Source: Candidatus Spongiisociaceae bacterium (lineage in GTDB: Bacteria > Actinomycetota > Acidimicrobiia > Spongiisociales > Spongiisociaceae). From it: DNA of 64,000 nt. The position numbers and the translations under genes were made by a program. Numbering within the stretch: the stretch's first letter is position 1; each line of letters starts with the position of its first letter. Of the stretch, positions 1 to 9,851 are shown piece after piece. Under the pieces are notes generated by a model. That model was given only the letters and a program-made list of their open reading frames with translations. It made no database searches and had not been told where the DNA came from. The DNA lies in NCBI GenBank assembly GCA_965219685.1, contig CBDCOH010000002.1, positions 2,592,001 through 2,656,000 of the forward strand, in the 5' to 3' direction.

Positions 1-147
1 CTGGTATCGGCGGACCTTGAGGAGTTGATCGGGATCTCGGATCGGATCCTCGTGATCCTGCGAGGCCGCTTGGTGGGCGAGTTCGATCCCGCGGCGATCG
101 GGCCGGAGGATCTGGGTGCTGCCATGACGGGAGCCGATGCCGCGTGA
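1..147 (+). CDS. Nucleoside/sugar (CUT2-type) ABC transporter ATP-binding protein, C-terminal fragment
   Basis: Frame 1 reads LVSADLEELIGISDRILVILRGRLVGEFDPAAIGPEDLGAAMTG, a typical C-terminus of dual-domain CUT2 ATPases; its TGA overlaps the next GTG (GTGA 144-147). Confidence 0.85.
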   Translation: MVSADLEELIGISDRILVILRGRLVGEFDPAAIGPEDLGAAMTGADAA

Positions 148-1244
148 TCGAGACCCGCATCGAACGTGTTCTGCTCCAGTTGATCGCGCCGGTGGTCGCC
201 ATCTTCTTCGCCGCCCTCCTGGCCGCTGCCATCCTCCACTTCACGGGCGCCGACGCCGGAAGCGTGCTCGGCGAAGTGGTTGCGTTCGGGACCACGCCGG
301 CGAGCCTGGTGGCTGTGGTCAACAAAGCCACGACGTTCTACCTGGCAGGAATTGCCGGCGCGATCGGGTTCCGGATGCTGCTCTTCAACATCGGCATCGA
401 CGGGCAGTACCGGCTTGCGGTGTTCTTCGCCGCGGTGGTGGGCGCGTCGGTGTCGCTTCCGCCGGTCCTCCATGTCACGCTCATCATCCTCGTCGCCATG
501 GTGGTCGGCGCCGGATGGGCGGCACTCGCCGGTTACATCAAGGTGACGCGCGGGGTCTCGGAGGTCATCAGCACGATCATGCTCAACGCCGTCGCAACCG
601 GAATCATCGCCTACCTCCTCGCTCCTGGAAGACTGGCCGAGCAAGCGGCCGGTAGTAACAACATCCGGACCACACCGATACCGGCCTCCGGGTGGTTTCC
701 CGGTTTCGAGGTCGCAGGCAAGGAGGTGTTCGGCTTCACGCTGGTGGCGGTGGCTCTGGGCATCGCCTTCTGGATCCTCCTCAACCGGACCCGCTTCGGC
801 TTCGAGCTGCGCGCCAGCGGCCTCTCGCTCCGGGCTGCCGCGGTCAGCGGCGTCAACTCCAAGCGCATGATCTTCGTGACGATGGTCATGTCCGGAGCGA
901 TGGCCGGTCTGGTGGGGATACCCCAACTCCTCGGGTCGTCTCACCAGTACGGCCTCGACTTCCCGGCCGGCTTCGGGTTCACCGGCCTCGCCATCGCGAT
1001 CCTCGGCCGTAACCATCCCCTGGGCGTCGCCTTCGGTGCCCTGCTCTGGGCGTGGCTGGAGCGATCCTCCCAGATTCTCGACCTGCTCGGCGTGTCGCGC
1101 GAGATAGTGACCATCATGCAGGCCACGATCGTGTTGAGCGTGGTGGTGGCCTATGAGGTAGTCCGCAGGGTCAACGTGCGCCGGCAGCAGAAGCTGGTCG
1201 GCCGGAGCGAACACGGAGGCATCGAGAACGGGGCAACCGCGTGA
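144..1244 (+). CDS. Nucleoside ABC transporter permease (NupB-like)
   Basis: LFNIGIDGQ, GVSEVISTIMLN, TRFGFELRASG and GFTGLAIAILGRNHPLG motifs; multi-TM. Confidence 0.9.
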   Translation: MIETRIERVLLQLIAPVVAIFFAALLAAAILHFTGADAGSVLGEVVAFGTTPASLVAVVNKATTFYLAGIAGAIGFRMLLFNIGIDGQYRLAVFFAAVVGASVSLPPVLHVTLIILVAMVVGAGWAALAGYIKVTRGVSEVISTIMLNAVATGIIAYLLAPGRLAEQAAGSNNIRTTPIPASGWFPGFEVAGKEVFGFTLVAVALGIAFWILLNRTRFGFELRASGLSLRAAAVSGVNSKRMIFVTMVMSGAMAGLVGIPQLLGSSHQYGLDFPAGFGFTGLAIAILGRNHPLGVAFGALLWAWLERSSQILDLLGVSREIVTIMQATIVLSVVVAYEVVRRVNVRRQQKLVGRSEHGGIENGATA

Positions 1245-2473
1245 AGACTATCCGCGAGCCCAGGTCTTCGCCCTCGATCTGGGGACGATGGTGGGTGCGG
1301 GTGCTGCTGGCCCTCCTGCTGCTGTCGGCGGTCGCCGACATTGCGAACACCCCGGACCTGCTGTCACGCGGCGCTGTGAGCGCCTCGCTCCGATTTGCGG
1401 TTCCGATCGTCCTGGCCGGGCTCGGCGGGTTGTGGGCGGAGCGCTGCGGCGTCATCAATATCGGCCTCGAGGGCATGATGATCATCGGTACCTGGATGGG
1501 GGCGTGGGCCGGGTTCCAGTGGAGTCCCTGGGTCGGAGTGCTGGCTGCGGTCGCGGGCGGGGCGGTGTTCGGCGCTTTCCACGCCCTGATGACGGTCTCG
1601 TTCGGCGTGGATCAGGCCGTTTCGGGCATCGCCATCAACGTTGCCGCCCTGGGACTGGGCCGGTTCCTGTCGTCGATCTTCTTCGAAGGCCAGCCGGGAG
1701 GAGGGATCAGCCAGTCACCGCACGTCGGCCAGATCGCAAACGTGTCGGTCCCCGGTCTCGCCGAAGTGCTCGATCCGATCGCGCGGCTGGAGACCCCGGT
1801 GATCTCGGACATCGCCGAGATCGGACTCGGCGTGACCACCGGCGTGTCGCTCCTGACCCTGCTGGCGGCCATGCTGGTGTTCCTGTCGTGGTGGGTCCTC
1901 TTCCGGACCAGCTTCGGGCTGCGGCTGCGGGCCTGCGGTGAGAACCCGGCGGCAGCGGATTCTCTCGGAGTGAACCCGAACCGGATGCGCTACGCGGCAC
2001 TCACGGTGTCGGGCGCCCTGGCAGGCCTCGGCGGGGCCTTTTTGGTGACGGTGGCTTCCTCGATCTACCGCGAAGGGCAGGTGGCGGGACGCGGATTCAT
2101 CGGTCTGGCCACGGTCATCTTCGGGAACTGGATGCCGGGTCGCCTCACCATCGGAGCACTTCTCTTCGGGTTCACCGACGCGCTCCGGACCCGCCAGGAG
2201 ACCACGATGACGGCCCTGCTGATCGTCGGGGCGGTGGTGTTCGCCTTCCTTACCGTCCGGGCTATACGCACCCGCAATCGAGGCGCGACCTTCGCGTATG
2301 CGATCGCCGCGGTGGGTCTGGGCTGGTGGTTCCTGGGCTTCGGAGTCGTCCCGTCGGAATTCGTCGGCTTCGCTCCGCACCTGACCACGCTGCTCGTTCT
2401 GTCCCTGGCGCACCAGAAGATTCGCCCTCCGCAGGGAATCGGCGTTCCCTACCGGCGCAGCGAGGCCAACTGA
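1241..2473 (+). CDS. Nucleoside ABC transporter permease (NupC-like)
   Basis: ERCGVINIGLEGMM, FGLRLRACGENP and GRGFIGLATVIFGNW motifs; GTGA overlap with the upstream permease. Confidence 0.9.
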   Translation: MKTIREPRSSPSIWGRWWVRVLLALLLLSAVADIANTPDLLSRGAVSASLRFAVPIVLAGLGGLWAERCGVINIGLEGMMIIGTWMGAWAGFQWSPWVGVLAAVAGGAVFGAFHALMTVSFGVDQAVSGIAINVAALGLGRFLSSIFFEGQPGGGISQSPHVGQIANVSVPGLAEVLDPIARLETPVISDIAEIGLGVTTGVSLLTLLAAMLVFLSWWVLFRTSFGLRLRACGENPAAADSLGVNPNRMRYAALTVSGALAGLGGAFLVTVASSIYREGQVAGRGFIGLATVIFGNWMPGRLTIGALLFGFTDALRTRQETTMTALLIVGAVVFAFLTVRAIRTRNRGATFAYAIAAVGLGWWFLGFGVVPSEFVGFAPHLTTLLVLSLAHQKIRPPQGIGVPYRRSEAN

Positions 2474-2504
2474 TGGGGTCGAATCCCCCGGAAGGAGAGG
2501 GAAC

Positions 2505-3506
2505 ATGGTGAGAGGACGGTACTGGGAAGGTCCGGTGCTGCGGTCCGTGGCGAACGTGGTGGACCGCTCGCAGCATGTCCATACGTCGAAGGACGCCGTG
2601 GACCGGGTTGCCGCGTGGATGGCCTACGAGGAGTTTTCGTTCCCACGCGGCGGGGCGGTCGGCGAGTTCGACGTGGGCTCCGACCCTGACGACATCATCG
2701 ATGTCACCATGCTGGTGTCGACCCTGAACTTCGCCTTCACGGACTTCGACACCGGACGCAAGTTCGAGGCCGACTACAAGGGGCAGACCTGGTCGGACAG
2801 CCTCGGAATGTTCGCCTGCCTCCATCAGGCCCTCTCGAACGGCGTCCCGCTGCTCGAAGGCCAGTACCTGGCGTCGGTCACGAGAGATGATCTCGATGAC
2901 ATCTTCCGGGGCAACATCGAGATGCCGATGCTCGACGAGCGCAGCGAGATCCTCAACGAGGTAGGGGCTGTGCTGGTGGATCGGTACGGGGGCCGGTTCC
3001 ATCGTTTCGTCCGCAGCTGCGCCCCGGCGATGTACGCGGAAGGTGACGGGCTCATGGAACGGCTCATAGCCGAGTTCCCCCGGTTCGATGACACGAGCAC
3101 CTATCACGGTGCGAACGTGCACATCCACAAGCTCGCCCAACTGGGTCTGTGGACCCTGCACATGGCGCTGCACGCCTCCGGCGAGTGGAGCCTCAGGGAC
3201 CTGTCGATGACAACCGCCTTCGCCGACTACATCGTTCCGGTGGCCTTGGAGGTGATGGGAATCTTCGAGTACACCCCCGAGTTGTCGACCCGCATCGCCG
3301 AGGGCCACATGATCGAGCGTGACAGCGATGAGGAGATCGAGATCCGGGCCCATACCCTGTACGCCACCGCGCTGTTGACGGACGCCATCAACGCTCTGAG
3401 GCCTGCAGACCTCAGCGTTGTGATCCCCCAGGTCGATTTCCGTCTGTGGTCGAAGTACCACGCCACCTTCCGTCCCCACCATCTGACCAGAACGGTGATG
3501 TACTGA
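2505..3506 (+). CDS. qng1: Queuosine salvage family protein (DUF2419 / Qng1-like queuosine nucleoside/nucleotide hydrolase)
   Basis: LNFAF, HKLAQL, TAFADYIVP, DSDEEIEIRA, VDFRLW and C-terminal HHLTRTVMY match the Q_salvage family pattern; RBS AAGGAG upstream. Confidence 0.85.
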   Translation: MVRGRYWEGPVLRSVANVVDRSQHVHTSKDAVDRVAAWMAYEEFSFPRGGAVGEFDVGSDPDDIIDVTMLVSTLNFAFTDFDTGRKFEADYKGQTWSDSLGMFACLHQALSNGVPLLEGQYLASVTRDDLDDIFRGNIEMPMLDERSEILNEVGAVLVDRYGGRFHRFVRSCAPAMYAEGDGLMERLIAEFPRFDDTSTYHGANVHIHKLAQLGLWTLHMALHASGEWSLRDLSMTTAFADYIVPVALEVMGIFEYTPELSTRIAEGHMIERDSDEEIEIRAHTLYATALLTDAINALRPADLSVVIPQVDFRLWSKYHATFRPHHLTRTVMY

Positions 3507-4702
3507 CCTGGCTGCTCCGGCGAACCGGCCCCGGCGGCTATCGGGCCGTGATGCGCATACCTGGGGCCCGGCCTCTGCTGTGGTTCGGGCTGGTCGGTCG
3601 GTTTCCCAACTCCATGTACCCGGTCGGCCTGGTGTTCGCAGTGGAGGCGATCACGGGATCGTACGGGTTGGCGGGCTCGGCCTCGGCGGGCTTCAGCCTC
3701 GCCGGAGCGGTGGCGAAGCCCATCGGCGGACGGCTCGTGGACCGCTACGGCCAGCGCCTCGCGGCGCGGTCCCTGCTGGCAGCCTTCGTAGCTTGCACCG
3801 TGGGCCTGCTGGTGGCGATCAGGGCGGTGGCGGCGCCGTGGATAATCGTGCTGGTGGCGGTCGGTGCGGGGCTGACCGCGCCCACCATAGGCGCCCTGAC
3901 CCGGGTCCGCTGGACCCGGATGGCCGAGGCTTCCGACATGCCACGGTGGCAGGCCCTGGAGTCGGCGAGCGATGAGATCAACTTCATCGTCGGTCCTTCG
4001 GCGGTCTCGGTCATGGCGGCCTGGGTGACGGCTTCGGCATCCCTGGTGGCCGCGACGGCGTTGGCGATCGTAGGCACGCTCGGGGTGACATCACTACCGG
4101 GCGAGCCGCGGGCGGGCCGCGCGAACCGGCCGAGAGCCGGGAACTGGATCAGGGCAACCCATCTTGCCGTACTCGGTTCGGTGGGCGGTCTCGGGATGGT
4201 CCTGGGCGGTGTCACCGTTACGGTCGTCGCCTATACGGCCGAACTCGGATATCCCGCCTGGTCAGCAGTGATCTTTCCCCTCAATGCCGGGGCCAGCTTG
4301 GTGGCCGCGCTGTTCATAGGTCGCATCGGACCTGGCGACCTCATGTCCCAACACCGTAAGGCAACAGTCTGGCTCCTGTTGGTGCTGCTCCCGTACGGCC
4401 TCGGTAACGGCCTCCTGTGGTTCACGGCTACGGCGATGATCGCGGGCCTGGGAACGTCGCCGAACCTGATCCAGGTCAATTCGCTGGCTGTCGCAACCAC
4501 CCCGCCCGAGCGGCGGACCGAGGCACTCTCGTGGATCGCTGCTGCGGCCGGTGTCGGCATCGCCGCCGGATCGGCGATCACCGGCCTGCTGGTGGATGCC
4601 GTCGGTGCTGACGCGGCCCGGATAGCGGTCACCGCTTTCGGTGCTTGTCCCGCCGCTATTACGGTCGCCATGACCTTGACCGGACGGAGAGCGAACCGAT
4701 GA
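3503..4702 (+). CDS. MFS transporter
   Basis: About 12 hydrophobic segments and motif A (GRLVDRYGQR); start uncertain (CTG 3503 overlapping the upstream TGA, or GTG/ATG at 3548/3551). Confidence 0.85.
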   Translation: MTWLLRRTGPGGYRAVMRIPGARPLLWFGLVGRFPNSMYPVGLVFAVEAITGSYGLAGSASAGFSLAGAVAKPIGGRLVDRYGQRLAARSLLAAFVACTVGLLVAIRAVAAPWIIVLVAVGAGLTAPTIGALTRVRWTRMAEASDMPRWQALESASDEINFIVGPSAVSVMAAWVTASASLVAATALAIVGTLGVTSLPGEPRAGRANRPRAGNWIRATHLAVLGSVGGLGMVLGGVTVTVVAYTAELGYPAWSAVIFPLNAGASLVAALFIGRIGPGDLMSQHRKATVWLLLVLLPYGLGNGLLWFTATAMIAGLGTSPNLIQVNSLAVATTPPERRTEALSWIAAAAGVGIAAGSAITGLLVDAVGADAARIAVTAFGACPAAITVAMTLTGRRANR

Positions 4703-5706
4703 CCACACCCATCTTGCTGGATGTCGACACCGGAATCGATGACGCGCTCGCCCTCCTCTACGCGGTGGCCTCCGCCGACGCCCGCCTTGTGGGTGTCAGT
4801 TGCGTCGCGGGCAACGTTTCGCTGGACGAGGTCACAGCCAACACGGCCGCCGTCCTGGATCTGGCCGGATGCCCGGAGACGGAGGTGTCGCCCGGCTGTG
4901 CCCGGCCGATCGAGCGACCGCTCGTCATCACCCCGGAGACCCATGGGCCCACCGGTACCGGGCATGAACGTCTCACGGCATCGCCCCAGCGGATAAGCGC
5001 CAGGTCCGGGGTCGATCTGATAGTCGACACCGCCCGTTCGCATCCGGGGGAGGTAACACTGGTGGCGCTCGGACCGCTGACGAACGTTGCGGTGGCCCTC
5101 GATCGGGAGCCTCGCCTGCTGTACCTGCTCAAGCGATTGGTGATCATGGGGGGTTGCTTCACCGTTGCCGGCAACACTGCTCCTCGTACCGAATGGAACA
5201 TGCATGTCGACCCGGAGGCGGCCAAGGCGGTATTCTCCGCCGCCGGTCGGGGTGCTCGCAGCTTGCCGCTCGTGATGCCGCTGGACCTGACCGAGCATGC
5301 GCGCCTCCTACCGGGCCACGTCTCGCGGATGGCCGAACTCGCCGGAACCGCGATGGAATCGCTGCAACCGCTGGTCTCCGGAGCTCACCCGCTGATGTCC
5401 TTCATCGCCAACGCGCTCAGGTTCTACATGGAGTTCCATCACCGCTACGACGGTTTCTACGGAGCCTTCGTCCACGATCCCTTCGCGGTAGCGGCCGCGA
5501 TGGATCCGTCCCTGGTGACTGTCGTGGAGACCACTGTCGATGTGGAGACGACCGGAGATCTGACGACCGGCGAATCCGTGGCGGACTTCAGAGGCTCCTG
5601 GGGCCGCGGCCGCAATGCCGCAGTCGCCTTGGACGGACGAGCGGACCTGTTCCTGGAACGCCTCGTGGTCAGGATCGGAGAACTGGCCGGCCGCCGGAGC
5701 GGGTAG
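4699..5706 (+). CDS. Nucleoside hydrolase (IUNH family)
   Basis: N-terminal DVDTGIDD (DxDxxxDD) motif, LGPLTN, EWNMHVDPEAA and VHDP; ATGA overlap with the MFS gene. Confidence 0.92.
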   Translation: MTTPILLDVDTGIDDALALLYAVASADARLVGVSCVAGNVSLDEVTANTAAVLDLAGCPETEVSPGCARPIERPLVITPETHGPTGTGHERLTASPQRISARSGVDLIVDTARSHPGEVTLVALGPLTNVAVALDREPRLLYLLKRLVIMGGCFTVAGNTAPRTEWNMHVDPEAAKAVFSAAGRGARSLPLVMPLDLTEHARLLPGHVSRMAELAGTAMESLQPLVSGAHPLMSFIANALRFYMEFHHRYDGFYGAFVHDPFAVAAAMDPSLVTVVETTVDVETTGDLTTGESVADFRGSWGRGRNAAVALDGRADLFLERLVVRIGELAGRRSG

Positions 5707-5819: not shown

Positions 5820-6635
5820 TCAGAGGGCATCGGCCGCCGGGTAGGTTCCCAGGATGTGCAACTCCGCGAGGGTCGCAGGCCGCGGCTCTAGTACGGCCCG
5901 GACACCCTCGGGTCCGGGCCGGTGGAGCATGTCCGCGTAGAACCGGTACTTCCACGCTTCCTCGGCCGGTCGCGATTCCAACCTGGTCAGGTTGGCGCCT
6001 CGCAGTCCTAGTTCCGTCAGGGAGAGAGCGAGCGCTCCCGGGGAGTGAGCGGTCGCGAACACGAACGACGTCTTGTTCGCGTCCGGCGCCACTTGATAAC
6101 CGTCGGCTACGAGGACGACGAATCGGGTGGTGTTGTGCTCCCGGTCCATGAAGTCCTTTGCCAGCACAACCACGCTCTCGTCGAGCGCGGTGTCGGGCGG
6201 CGCGAGGGCCGCCGCGGTCGGGTCCCCCATCTCCACTATCAGCCGCACCGCTCCCGCCGTGTCGTGGGTGGCAAGCGGTTCCCATCCGGCCTGTTCGATC
6301 CGGTCGTCGGCCTGGGCCAGAGCCTGGGGATGGGAATGGACCGTCCTGATCATCTGGAGCGTCGCCCCGGCCAGCCCGATCACGGCATGGCGTACCTCGA
6401 CGAGATGCTCCCCAATTATTGAAGCACGGCTCCTGGTAAGCCTATCCAGAACCGGCAGGACGCTTCCCGTCGTGGAGTTCTCGATGGGGAGCATCAGCCG
6501 GTCCACCTCACCGTCGCGCAAGGCGTGGAAAGCGTGCGCGAAACCGCTGAAACCGAACCGCTCCGCATCCGGGAACAGTTCCCGGACCGCCTGGTCCGAA
6601 TACGATCGTCCTTCGCCCTGGTAGCCCACTCTCAT
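5820..6635 (-). CDS. pheA: Prephenate dehydratase
   Basis: PIENSTTGSV, SHPQALAQ, NTTRF and ACT domain NLTRLESRP; start placed at MRVGYQG. Confidence 0.92.
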   Translation of the reverse strand: MRVGYQGEGRSYSDQAVRELFPDAERFGFSGFAHAFHALRDGEVDRLMLPIENSTTGSVLPVLDRLTRSRASIIGEHLVEVRHAVIGLAGATLQMIRTVHSHPQALAQADDRIEQAGWEPLATHDTAGAVRLIVEMGDPTAAALAPPDTALDESVVVLAKDFMDREHNTTRFVVLVADGYQVAPDANKTSFVFATAHSPGALALSLTELGLRGANLTRLESRPAEEAWKYRFYADMLHRPGPEGVRAVLEPRPATLAELHILGTYPAADAL

Positions 6636-6741
6636 CGGCCGCAGGGTACCTGGCCCTGACAACCCCGAAACCGTCCGGTCGAGCCGCATCCAGCCGGGCC
6701 CGGCCGGCCTGCCGGGCCGCTCCGATACCATTCCCTCCGCA

Positions 6742-8286
<1,545 letters not shown>

Positions 8287-8331: not shown

Positions 8332-8949
8332 ATGCCAGCGCGCGGTCCTCTAATCGACAGAGCTACACCGCGAAACGAAGGGTTCAACGCCCAGGCCAAC
8401 CTCCCCTACTCGCTCCGCATCGAGGACTTTCGCCTAGCCATGCTGGACGTCTACGACCTCCTGCATGACATCAACCAGGCTTTACTAACCCGAGGCGTCA
8501 AACGTTTCGAGGAAACGGTTCGGGCAGCCATATTCTCGGGCATTCTGAGTGATACGATCGCCGCCTCTCTCGCCCAGCACTCGCGCGTGCTGACCGAGAA
8601 CGAGTTCCACAATGGCCACCCGGACTTGATACCTACCGGGGTCTATCCGCACAACAAGGTTCAATCCGGACATGAGGGCGTCGAGGTCAAGGCGACCAAG
8701 GGACGCGGGGCGGTGGATACCCACGGAGCCCGGGACGCTTGGCTTGTCGTATTCCGGTACAAGGTGGATTCACAGTCCGAGCCAGCGATCGAACGGGCTC
8801 CCACGAGATTCATCGAGATACTCCTCGGTCAACTAACAACGGACGACTTCAGGCGCAACGAACGGGGGGAGCTAGGAACCCGAACGGCAAGTCCCAACCG
8901 TGCCGGTATGAAAAAGCTACGTGCCAACTGGATCTATCGAGAACTCTGA
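8332..8949 (+). CDS. Putative type II restriction endonuclease (PD-(D/E)xK)
   Basis: HPDL...GVEVKAT motif; convergent with and overlapping a DNA methyltransferase; own leaderless TAGCAT -10 box at 8320-8325. Confidence 0.6.
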   Translation: MPARGPLIDRATPRNEGFNAQANLPYSLRIEDFRLAMLDVYDLLHDINQALLTRGVKRFEETVRAAIFSGILSDTIAASLAQHSRVLTENEFHNGHPDLIPTGVYPHNKVQSGHEGVEVKATKGRGAVDTHGARDAWLVVFRYKVDSQSEPAIERAPTRFIEILLGQLTTDDFRRNERGELGTRTASPNRAGMKKLRANWIYREL

Positions 8950-9851
8950 TCCTCAACCTTCAATGCCGAGAGGGCAGGGATCGACTCCCTTGCGACCCCT
9001 ACGTAGTGGCGATCAATCTCTATGCCGATACTGGCGTATCCGACAGCCTCCGCAGCGGCGAGCGTCGAACCTGAACCGGCAAATGGGTCAAGCACCGTTC
9101 CCTCACCAAGAGGAAGAACCGCTCGAACGATCTGACGCAGAAAGGCCTGTGGTTTAAGACTGGGGTGGGGTGCCAGCCTCCGTTCGGTAGATCGGGTTGG
9201 CGCTGACCGGATCACATCCCCGAATGGGCGAGCATTCGAGATTCGACGCAACCCACCGGTCTTGTACTTCCGGAGATTGTCCATGACCCTCCCTTCGATG
9301 GGTCTCCGGAACAGCAGCCAAGGCTCCCACTGGGAGCGAGGCATGACGCTCACACCAGGGAACTCATCGTGTGCGTTCTTGGGCCGGTCCCCTCCTCGAA
9401 GCGTCTGGACGAGCCTCACCAATTCTCCACGCCGCTCCAACCCTGCTGCAGTCAGTGCCCGGGCGACGATATGGCTCACCAGAGGATTCGACGCAACCAG
9501 AACATGTGCACCCGGAACCAATACGGGCCTGAGGAACTCTCCCCACTCCACGAAGAAGAGTTCCAGCGCGTGAAGATCCCTTGGGCTCAGCGTCGTGAAT
9601 CTAGGTAGAGGAGACCGCTTCGAACCGTCGAAACTCGGGGGTATCCGCCAGACCCCGCCCCGGCCTTGGCGCAACTTGGTTTGCTGTTCTCTCGTGTACT
9701 CCACGAGACCGTACGGAGGATCGGTCACTACGCCGTGCAAGGTCTTCTCCGGCTGGCCCTCCAACCAGGTCATGCAGTCTCCCTCGTAGAGACGGGACTG
9801 CCCGTACTCGAAGGCCAAGGAGAGGCCCGCTGATCCCTGAGGGAACGACAT
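8934..9851 (-). CDS. Site-specific DNA methyltransferase, beta class (N6/N4 family)
   Basis: Catalytic TDPPY near the N-terminus; HPSLKP and SAM-binding DPFAGSGST near the C-terminus. Confidence 0.9.
   Translation of the reverse strand: MSFPQGSAGLSLAFEYGQSRLYEGDCMTWLEGQPEKTLHGVVTDPPYGLVEYTREQQTKLRQGRGGVWRIPPSFDGSKRSPLPRFTTLSPRDLHALELFFVEWGEFLRPVLVPGAHVLVASNPLVSHIVARALTAAGLERRGELVRLVQTLRGGDRPKNAHDEFPGVSVMPRSQWEPWLLFRRPIEGRVMDNLRKYKTGGLRRISNARPFGDVIRSAPTRSTERRLAPHPSLKPQAFLRQIVRAVLPLGEGTVLDPFAGSGSTLAAAEAVGYASIGIEIDRHYVGVARESIPALSALKVEDQSSR

Follow-up and report, generated by a model that had tools for sequence, protein, structure and literature searches.

Introduction

Qng1, characterised from Sphaerobacter thermophilus and from humans, is an N-glycosylase of queuosine 5'-monophosphate (Q-5'-MP), whose catalytic residues and contacts to the ribose and the base edge comprise K199, D231, N72, F75, Y232, D298, W302, E267, H316 and the carboxylate of the C-terminal tyrosine, whose cyclopentenediol side-chain pocket is formed by P46, W48, H53, Y93, W94 and W299, and whose proton relay involves D69 and D207 (PMC9881137, sections 22 and 27, from which all Qng1 residue roles used here are taken). 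Clostridioides difficile salvages queuine indirectly through QueK, QueT and QueL (PMC11570991, PMC11130926 and PMC12632869, citing Yuan 2019), and QueK usually adjoins queT; streptococci have QueK and a canonical TGT and no QueL, which raises the same question of where the queuine goes (PMC12632869). Genes for MFS_1, EamA and ABC_tran (PF00005) proteins beside Qng1, QueK or bTGT have already been listed as candidates for the transport of queuosine (Q) precursors, with ABC_tran and EamA marked as not tested (PMC11130926, Table 1). Here we analyse a nine-gene locus containing a Qng1-family gene, which extends into the first 5706 positions of a 64,000-nucleotide stretch of DNA (the window, C2:2592001-2656000) from the genome of a Candidatus Spongiisociaceae bacterium of the class Acidimicrobiia (G000; 4.42 Mb, two contigs, 96.74% complete, 5.93% contamination).

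The importer encoded at this locus resembles the BMP/PnrA-type (CUT2) nucleoside ATP-binding cassette (ABC) importers in having a Bmp lipoprotein, one two-domain ATPase and two BPD_transp_2 permeases, and differs from them in that genes for a Qng1-family protein and a major facilitator superfamily (MFS) transporter are inserted in the operon. The locus also resembles the uridine/ribose operon uriR-rbsK1-uriT-uriH of Corynebacterium glutamicum, which likewise unites a LacI-type regulator, a ribokinase, an MFS transporter and an IUNH-family hydrolase in one regulon; unlike that operon, it has added ABC and Qng1 genes, and its matches to UriH and UriR lie under the equivalog cut-offs. As in the QueK-QueT-QueL system of C. 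difficile, a transporter and an IUNH enzyme are clustered in a host whose TGT is canonical, which has QueA and which does not make preQ1 de novo, but this genome lacks an ECF/QueT importer, no QueL was identified in it, and Qng1 would be an added second hydrolase. Compared with the S. thermophilus and human enzymes (PMC9881137, same sections), the Qng1-family protein keeps K199, D231, Y232, E267, D298, W302, H316 and the C-terminal tyrosine, lacks D69, D207, W48, H53, Y93 and W94, and is encoded next to a ribokinase, transporters and an IUNH enzyme rather than tgt.

Results

The window holds the 3' part of the locus, and the upstream genes were taken from the overlapping genome interval L004 (C2:2582001-2598000). 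With a probability of about one half, we read the locus as a nucleoside-scavenging system under a LacI/RbsR-type repressor in which a PfkB/Qng1-MFS module for queuosine-like (7-substituted guanine) nucleosides is embedded. Gene content, junctions, family memberships, pathway gaps and linkage statistics were observed directly; all substrates, the transport direction and the connection with tRNA that follow are inferred. The Bmp lipoprotein and the ABC transporter would import nucleosides, and the MFS protein would import the substrate of Qng1 or move its product. The IUNH enzyme would cleave ordinary nucleosides, the Qng1-family enzyme would release the base from a queuosine-type nucleoside, or from the corresponding 5'-monophosphate, by cleaving the N-glycosidic bond, and the divergently encoded PfkB would phosphorylate the released ribose, with the repressor binding a palindrome in the divergent promoter region. 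As the host appears to be a Q-precursor auxotroph, the released base would most likely feed tRNA-Q synthesis, through a putative step from queuine to preQ1 or as a base other than queuine.

The Qng1-family protein matches Q_salvage (PF10343) with 187.1 bits against a cut-off of 25 and is homologous over its full length to solved Qng1 structures, including that of the S. thermophilus enzyme (StQng1, 7u07, 4.6e-45; 7u07 and 7uk3 both at about 4e-45 over residues 11-333), with an identity to StQng1 of about 38% as counted from the alignment. Its gene is present in a single copy, and its closest public relatives come from Acidimicrobiia metagenome-assembled genomes (MAGs) labelled Candidatus Spongiisocius or Spongiisociaceae. 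The KLAQ, FADY and DFRLW motifs are present and align to K199, D231-Y232 and D298-W302 of StQng1, and the core is retained throughout as K209, D241, N75, F78, Y242, D311, W315, E277, H326 and the terminal Y333; it comprises the HhH lysine and aspartate, the ribose-stacking phenylalanine and tyrosine, the aspartate and tryptophan that read the guanine edge, the counterparts of E267 and H316, and the C-terminal tyrosine. The pocket positions P46/W48/H53/Y93/W94/W299 align to P47/G49/E54/S99/L100/F312, and D69/D207, for which the relay role is a proposal, align to S72/T217, a result that depends on an alignment with indels in its N-terminal part. Across 105 diverse family members these positions are highly variable, with the S. 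thermophilus/human pattern in the minority. The subfamily to which the protein belongs carries an FTDFDT insertion and an invariant D80 and D98 close to where the pocket aligns, which might take over the role of the side-chain and relay residues that are not conserved. Taken with the gene neighbourhoods described below, these comparisons show that Qng1 is not one uniform family and that it includes a large subfamily in Acidimicrobiia and Chloroflexota in which the side-chain pocket is remodelled and the genomic context differs.

Conservation of the base-edge and ribose contacts, without conservation of the side-chain pocket and the proton relay, also fits a locus that serves plain catabolism or salvage of nucleosides and takes no part in forming tRNA-Q. 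The substrate of the Qng1 subfamily would then have become some other guanine-like nucleoside or nucleotide, for example guanosine itself or a 7-substituted guanine of another kind, and the enzyme would serve as a further N-ribohydrolase paired with the ribokinase. D80 and D98 speak against this, as they could still hold an amine-bearing side chain, and so does the need of the hosts for an external Q precursor. We regard this reading as doubtful though conceivable.

Neighbourhoods were compared in 80 species-level loci of the same Qng1 subfamily (60-93% identical to the protein studied here), which were searched with the nine locus proteins and scored at ≥35% identity and ≥50% coverage, and in an even sample of 301 Acidimicrobiia genomes from 136 genera, sorted into families f2, f3 and so on, in which two genomes flagged as unpublished contribute to tallies only. 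PfkB was found in 50 of the 80 loci, within 600 bp of Qng1 in 28 of them, and Bmp in 17, the ATPase in 14, the permeases in 14-15, MFS in 14, IUNH in 13 and LacI in 13; all nine genes occur together in 10 loci, all among the closest relatives. Qng1 is present in 69 of the 301 sampled genomes (21 genera). Strong matches, defined as those of ≥150 bits, number 58 in 56 genomes, and in 49 of these a PfkB orthologue lies less than 500 bp from Qng1 (46 divergent, three co-directional). Two further matches (G000, the genome studied here, and G182) have PfkB 6.4 kb away with the ABC genes in between, and seven, five of them in family f9, have no PfkB orthologue on the contig. The adjacent pairs come from families f3, f4, f5 and f12; as 39 of the genomes fall in f12, and nearly all of these in one genus, the independent pairing events are far fewer than 49. 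Family f9 (G083, G111, G127, G139 and G175) is the only sampled family with QueC in every genome, and its strong Qng1 genes lie on contigs without a ribokinase-type kinase.

Homologues of the MFS protein occur in nine of the 301 genomes, in all nine on the same strand as Qng1 and within ~2.2 kb of it, and a search of the ESM Atlas with this protein returned generic MFS clusters only. The MFS transporter is the most Qng1-specific partner, and the ABC part is the least specific component of the locus. The context of the subfamily, in which ribokinase, IUNH, PNP and nucleoside transporters recur and tgt never does, is in line with plain nucleoside catabolism, as are the habitual pairing of ribokinase with a nucleoside hydrolase in this class and the report in PMC11130926 that a transporter encoded beside qng1 carried preQ0/preQ1 and not Q; on the other side, the module has a highly specific MFS partner and persists in ~1-Mb genomes, which points to a special substrate.

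Other arrangements of the same genes were observed. In f12 genomes of ~1 Mb and 33-37% GC, PNP and PfkB are followed by Qng1, IUNH, MFS, a 190-aa lipoprotein, EamA and a second IUNH. The predicted 190-aa lipoprotein has no Pfam family (L123:6063-6635, L124:5035-5613, also in L121 and L122), and in L121-L123 it adjoins an EamA/TPT-type transporter (L123:6639-7496); EamA and eukaryotic SLC35F2 are members of one superfamily. A Nitriliruptoraceae MAG (L057) has the rearranged order permease-permease-MFS-IUNH, then PfkB, then Qng1. Family f2 has a Qng1-like gene of very divergent sequence (25-27% identity to the one studied here, 82.9 bits to PF10343), which stands back to back with a Bmp-ATPase-permease operon in seven of nine cases, an arrangement that speaks for a genuine association of Qng1-family enzymes with BMP ABC systems. 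In three f2 genomes (G023, G174 and G234; L131-L133) this gene lies between clpC and the Bmp-ABC operon, and the matching clpC-Bmp-ABC locus of the genome studied here (C2:2374588-2383278) has no Qng1-like gene and encodes its Bmp in a 688-aa double frame. A separate group of neighbourhoods (21 of 79 loci, among L040-L087, some of them Poriferisocius-labelled; for example L063:9147-9926) has Qng1 next to a Cu-oxidase_4/YfiH-family gene, often with a MazF-like toxin gene directly 5' of Qng1 and no ribokinase nearby.

An earlier note, based on the letters of the window, had read the six genes there as a dedicated queuosine uptake and salvage operon, in which the ABC transporter imports queuosine, Qng1 and a QueK-like IUNH enzyme release queuine, and the MFS protein moves queuine or a by-product. 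The importer parts are complete (a Bmp lipoprotein, a two-domain ATPase and two BPD_transp_2 permeases); the N-terminus of Bmp carries a signal with a cysteine (MRGKRTVLLALPALLALVMATACGG), and its solved relatives include TmpC/PnrA, BmpA, BmpD and mycoplasma lipoproteins. This Bmp subfamily (43-58% identity) was found in 95 of the 301 class genomes, including families without Qng1, and the genome itself holds three Bmp copies, with a second BMP ABC locus adjoining clpC. As a control, we examined 20 Acidimicrobiia loci with only the distant, unlinked ribokinase type (39-44% identity), in 14 of which the kinase gene was called. The kinase adjoins an IUNH gene in 7 of these 14, Bmp and the ATPase follow in 4 of the 7, and Qng1 is absent, indicating that ribokinase-IUNH-Bmp-ABC is the ordinary nucleoside-use build of the class. 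As this type of importer occurs so widely, in three copies in this genome and in the same build without Qng1, the Bmp/ABC type is not specific to Qng1, and the results do not support a dedicated queuosine ABC route. The expected linkage between Qng1 and these transporters was partly borne out, in that Qng1 lies beside BMP-type ABC genes in several separate arrangements and the MFS homologues of the class sample lie near Qng1 in nine of nine cases.

The IUNH enzyme is one of five IUNH matches in the genome. Its nearest curated models are UriH and RihA, both under cut-off (UriH, 199.5 bits against 450), and in a phylogeny for which long branches and composition bias were flagged it forms its own clade with the L057 homologue; the genome has no QueT for it to sit beside. 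A co-evolving clade of Qng1-associated IUNH enzymes was rejected, since in this phylogeny the IUNHs encoded beside Qng1 in the ~1-Mb genomes cluster among other paralogues. A dedicated queuosine operon would be consistent with the auxotrophy of the host in the absence of YhhQ and QueT, with the tight operon structure, with the occurrence of Qng1-family genes next to BMP ABC genes in three or more arrangements, and with the listing of an ABC family next to Q-salvage genes as a candidate (PMC11130926). We nevertheless consider it unlikely, given the spread of the Bmp subfamily and the three copies, a build equal to that of generic PfkB-IUNH-Bmp-ABC operons, a regulator of RbsR/CytR/UriR type in place of a preQ1 riboswitch, the UriH and RihA models nearest to its hydrolase, the lack of orthology between that hydrolase and the Qng1-adjacent IUNHs of ~1-Mb genomes, and the want of a known route for queuine into tRNA in this host.

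The earlier note had proposed checking the genome for tgt and for the absence of the queuosine pathway, and had pointed to YhhQ/QPTR and QueT as the best-characterised importers. The genome has tgt and queA, which are adjacent (C2:314146-316277), and queG. In profile searches of the 96.74% complete genome there was no match to QueD/PTPS or QueH, sub-threshold matches to QueC and QueF proved to be TilS and GTP cyclohydrolase I (FolE) and not pathway enzymes, and QueE is not among its eight radical-SAM proteins (MoaA, MiaB, RimO, CofG, CofH, LipA, one of the Rv2578c family and one of the CUAEP-tail family). The same genome gave no domain match to YhhQ/QPTR (Vut_1) or QueT. The presence of tgt without queC, queD, queE or queF, and the lack of both known importers, were therefore as anticipated; the expected loss of queA and queG was not, as both are present. 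The TGT pocket is of the canonical preQ1 type by alignment. With tgt, queA, queG and such a pocket, the cell appears to insert preQ1 and to finish Q with QueA and QueG, and the host appears to be a Q-precursor auxotroph, which cannot make preQ1 and in which neither known importer was found. Its profile is typical of the class, in which 223 of the 301 genomes have a QueA match and 27 a QueC match, with QueC in 0/35 (f2), 0/9 (f3), 0/16 (f4) and 0/65 (f12).

Two of the radical-SAM proteins, of the Rv2578c/PA0069 and CUAEP/CCAEP-tail families (C2:206558-207808 and C2:1499737-1501083; the latter family's protein scores 493 bits against a cut-off of 500), have no assigned function and are the only visible candidates for a queuine-processing radical enzyme. 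LipB and LipA match one continuous frame of ~786 aa (C2:1286693-1289053, L097), which is either a fusion or an over-long open reading frame (ORF) call.

Several results weigh against a module directed at queuosine-like nucleosides. By alignment, W48, H53, Y93, W94, D69 and D207 of StQng1 are not conserved in this subfamily. In an alignment with the Zymomonas mobilis and Thermotoga maritima enzymes, the DVC and GGLSVGE segments of TGT align to Z. mobilis C158 and V233, residues by which enzymes of the preQ1 type and of the queuine type differ. In a cell with such a TGT and with QueA and QueG, free queuine would be without a known route into tRNA, and no queuine lyase was identified among the eight radical-SAM proteins, for which no search with a QueL model was made. 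Neither tgt nor queA lies within 10 kb of Qng1 in any of the 80 loci of this subfamily; in the characterised, St-like subfamily, tgt lies within 5 kb in 12 of 80 metagenome loci (41 of them with ≥1.5 kb on both sides), and none of these 80 holds a homologue of the PfkB, Bmp, ATPase, permeases, MFS or IUNH studied here. An Rfam search found no preQ1 riboswitch in L004 or in seven related loci. Finally, Qng1 is patchy in families that lack QueC and bear QueA (8/35 in f2, 4/9 in f3 and 4/16 in f4), which implies that these lineages can have Q without it.

The regulator combines a LacI helix-turn-helix with a periplasmic-binding-protein fold and has a CG-centred palindrome in the promoter region that it would control. 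Its nearest curated models are RbsR, CytR, PurR and UriR, all under cut-off (UriR, 191.9 bits against 550). The 14-bp palindrome, TGAAAACGTTGTCA, is a putative LacI-type operator between the PfkB and LacI genes; it occurs exactly once within 16 kb and recurs identically or as a close variant in 9 of 11 loci that share this gene set, and two promoter-like sites, which are consensus matches only, lie beside or over it. No Rfam element was found in L004 at E ≤ 1 beyond two sub-threshold chance matches. Judged from its sequence, the locus is probably under the control of a LacI/RbsR-like repressor.

PfkB scores 298.2 bits against the ribokinase equivalog TIGR02152, close to the cut-off of 299.65, and its best solved relatives are ribokinases (8e-52), including the human enzyme, to which it is about 46% identical over the aligned stretch. 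The segments GFGGKGANQA, GQLEIP and DTTGAGD are conserved in 28 Qng1-linked and 13 unlinked kinases, and within them GGKGANQA, QLEIP and DTTGAGD are the ribose (sugar) and anion-hole motifs. Linked and unlinked kinases differ at eight positions, all of them conservative differences and none at a ribose contact, and the linked kinases form a separate high-identity group (43-82% identical to the protein studied here, versus ≤46% for the unlinked ones). The genome has five IUNH matches and two BMP ABC systems, and PfkB is its sole gene of the ribokinase-like kind. The plain reading of these features is that PfkB is probably a true ribokinase, by which ribose set free in nucleoside hydrolysis is recycled.

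Alternatively, by analogy with pseudouridine kinase and glycosidase, PfkB could be a queuosine 5'-kinase that makes Q-5'-MP for Qng1, a proposal compatible with the reading given above for the remaining genes. Queuosine imported by the MFS transporter, and here also by the ABC transporter, would be 5'-phosphorylated by PfkB, and Qng1 would then split the product into the base and ribose-5-phosphate. In favour of this, PfkB and Qng1 stay paired in rearranged loci and in more than one class, the linked kinases stand apart as a group, and Qng1 prefers Q-5'-MP, the kinase for which is called unidentified or unknown in PMC9881137 and PMC12207525. Against these points stand the near-cut-off score to the ribokinase model and the solved ribokinase relatives, the retention of all ribokinase motifs with few and conservative group-specific changes, the position of PfkB as the sole ribokinase-like gene beside five IUNH matches, the lack of such a kinase near Qng1 in all 80 loci of the characterised subfamily, and a preference of bacterial StQng1 for Q-5'-MP of only 1.7-fold (PMC9881137, Discussion). 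We judge a queuosine kinase improbable, and the phosphorylative route as a whole carries the same long odds. A literature search found no paper naming a queuosine kinase and none of relevance joining ribokinase and queuosine.

The coordinates of the locus are collected in Table 1. Gene calling and reading of the junctions agree with the six same-strand genes, their order and their overlaps as described from the window, and Pfam searches matched every family assigned there (BPD_transp_2, Q_salvage, MFS_1 and IU_nuc_hydro). The unit is larger than its part in the window, as PfkB, LacI and Bmp upstream bring it to nine genes, and both the divergent kinase, which lies outside the window, and the tight tie between MFS and Qng1 had been overlooked. 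The ATG of Qng1 follows a 31-bp spacer (2474-2504) with a purine-rich, ribosome-binding-like stretch, GGAAGGAGAGG. The MFS gene could start at GTG 3446 (a 61-nt overlap with Qng1), at the non-canonical CTG 3503 or at ATG 3551 (a 44-nt gap). In an alignment of homologues the frame opens only at the ATG in 2 of 11 loci of this type, and the residues GYR, upstream of ATG 3551, are conserved in distant homologues; CTG 3503, previously taken as the probable start, is one candidate among the three.

Table 1. Genes of the locus and of the adjoining part of the window. Positions without a prefix are those of the window, in which GC content is ~66%.
Feature	Position	Strand	Match and remarks
Ribokinase-type PfkB	C2:2587290-2588231	opposite, divergent	PfkB 1.5e-64; upstream of window
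Putative operator TGAAAACGTTGTCA	L004 6319-6332		PfkB/LacI intergenic region
LacI-family repressor	C2:2588395-2589435	+	LacI/Peripla_BP_3; upstream of window
Bmp lipoprotein	C2:2589529-2590623	+	Bmp 1.8e-56; upstream of window
Two-domain ABC ATPase, 505 aa	C2:2590630-2592147	+	ABC_tran 5.7e-49 in two stretches
ABC ATPase, 3' end, 48 codons	1-147	+	rest of gene upstream of window
ABC permease 1	144-1244	+	BPD_transp_2 8.2e-38; GTGA overlap with ATPase stop (144-147)
ABC permease 2	1241-2473	+	BPD_transp_2 1e-35; GTGA overlap with permease 1 (1241-1244)
Predicted Qng1-family (Q_salvage/DUF2419) N-glycosylase, 333 aa	2505-3506	+	Q_salvage 6.7e-55
MFS_1 transporter	3446-4702, start uncertain	+	MFS_1 5.3e-20
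IUNH-family nucleoside hydrolase	4699-5706 (alternative start 4645)	+	IU_nuc_hydro 6.9e-86; ATGA with MFS stop (4699-4702)
Prephenate dehydratase	5820-6731	-	convergent; closes the unit downstream
GH13 alpha-amylase-family gene	6742-8286		downstream of the operon
205-aa ORF	8332-8949		no Pfam family; GC falls to about 0.61 here
N6_N4 DNA methylase	8934-9851	-	2.9e-17; overlaps end of 205-aa ORF

The 205-aa ORF and the methylase beside it, which follow the prephenate dehydratase and alpha-amylase-family genes, may form a small restriction-modification island (8332-9851).

Discussion

Taken together, our analysis leaves in place the protein families, the Q-precursor auxotrophy and the position of Qng1 beside BMP ABC genes from which the earlier interpretation started, while the ABC route dedicated to queuosine did not emerge from it. 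We favour, as stated at the outset, repressor-controlled nucleoside scavenging with an embedded PfkB/Qng1-MFS module for queuosine-like nucleosides. A link between ribokinase and Qng1 does not appear in the passages of PMC11130926 considered here, and its Tables S2/S3 and Figure S2 may already show an ABC, MFS or kinase neighbourhood of this kind.

Three questions stand open in the literature: which kinase makes Q-5'-MP (PMC9881137, PMC12207525), which importers of queuosine or queuine bacteria use beyond QPTR and QueT (PMC11130926), and what becomes of queuine in bacteria with a canonical TGT and QueA and without QueL (PMC12632869). The locus and its relatives offer cloneable candidates for the first two, namely a ribokinase-type kinase that nearly always accompanies one Qng1 subfamily, an MFS subgroup seen nowhere but next to this subfamily and a repeatedly linked BMP ABC system, and they add a further lineage that shows the third. 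Were the phosphorylative route true, PfkB would be the first queuosine kinase to be identified and would point directly to the 'unknown kinase' of the pathway in eukaryotes. Given the remodelled pocket and the different context, the annotation of this subfamily as a queuosine salvage protein needs testing. Its hosts include sponge symbionts and marine planktonic bacteria with genomes of ~1 Mb, for which dependence on other organisms for a micronutrient would be of ecological interest.

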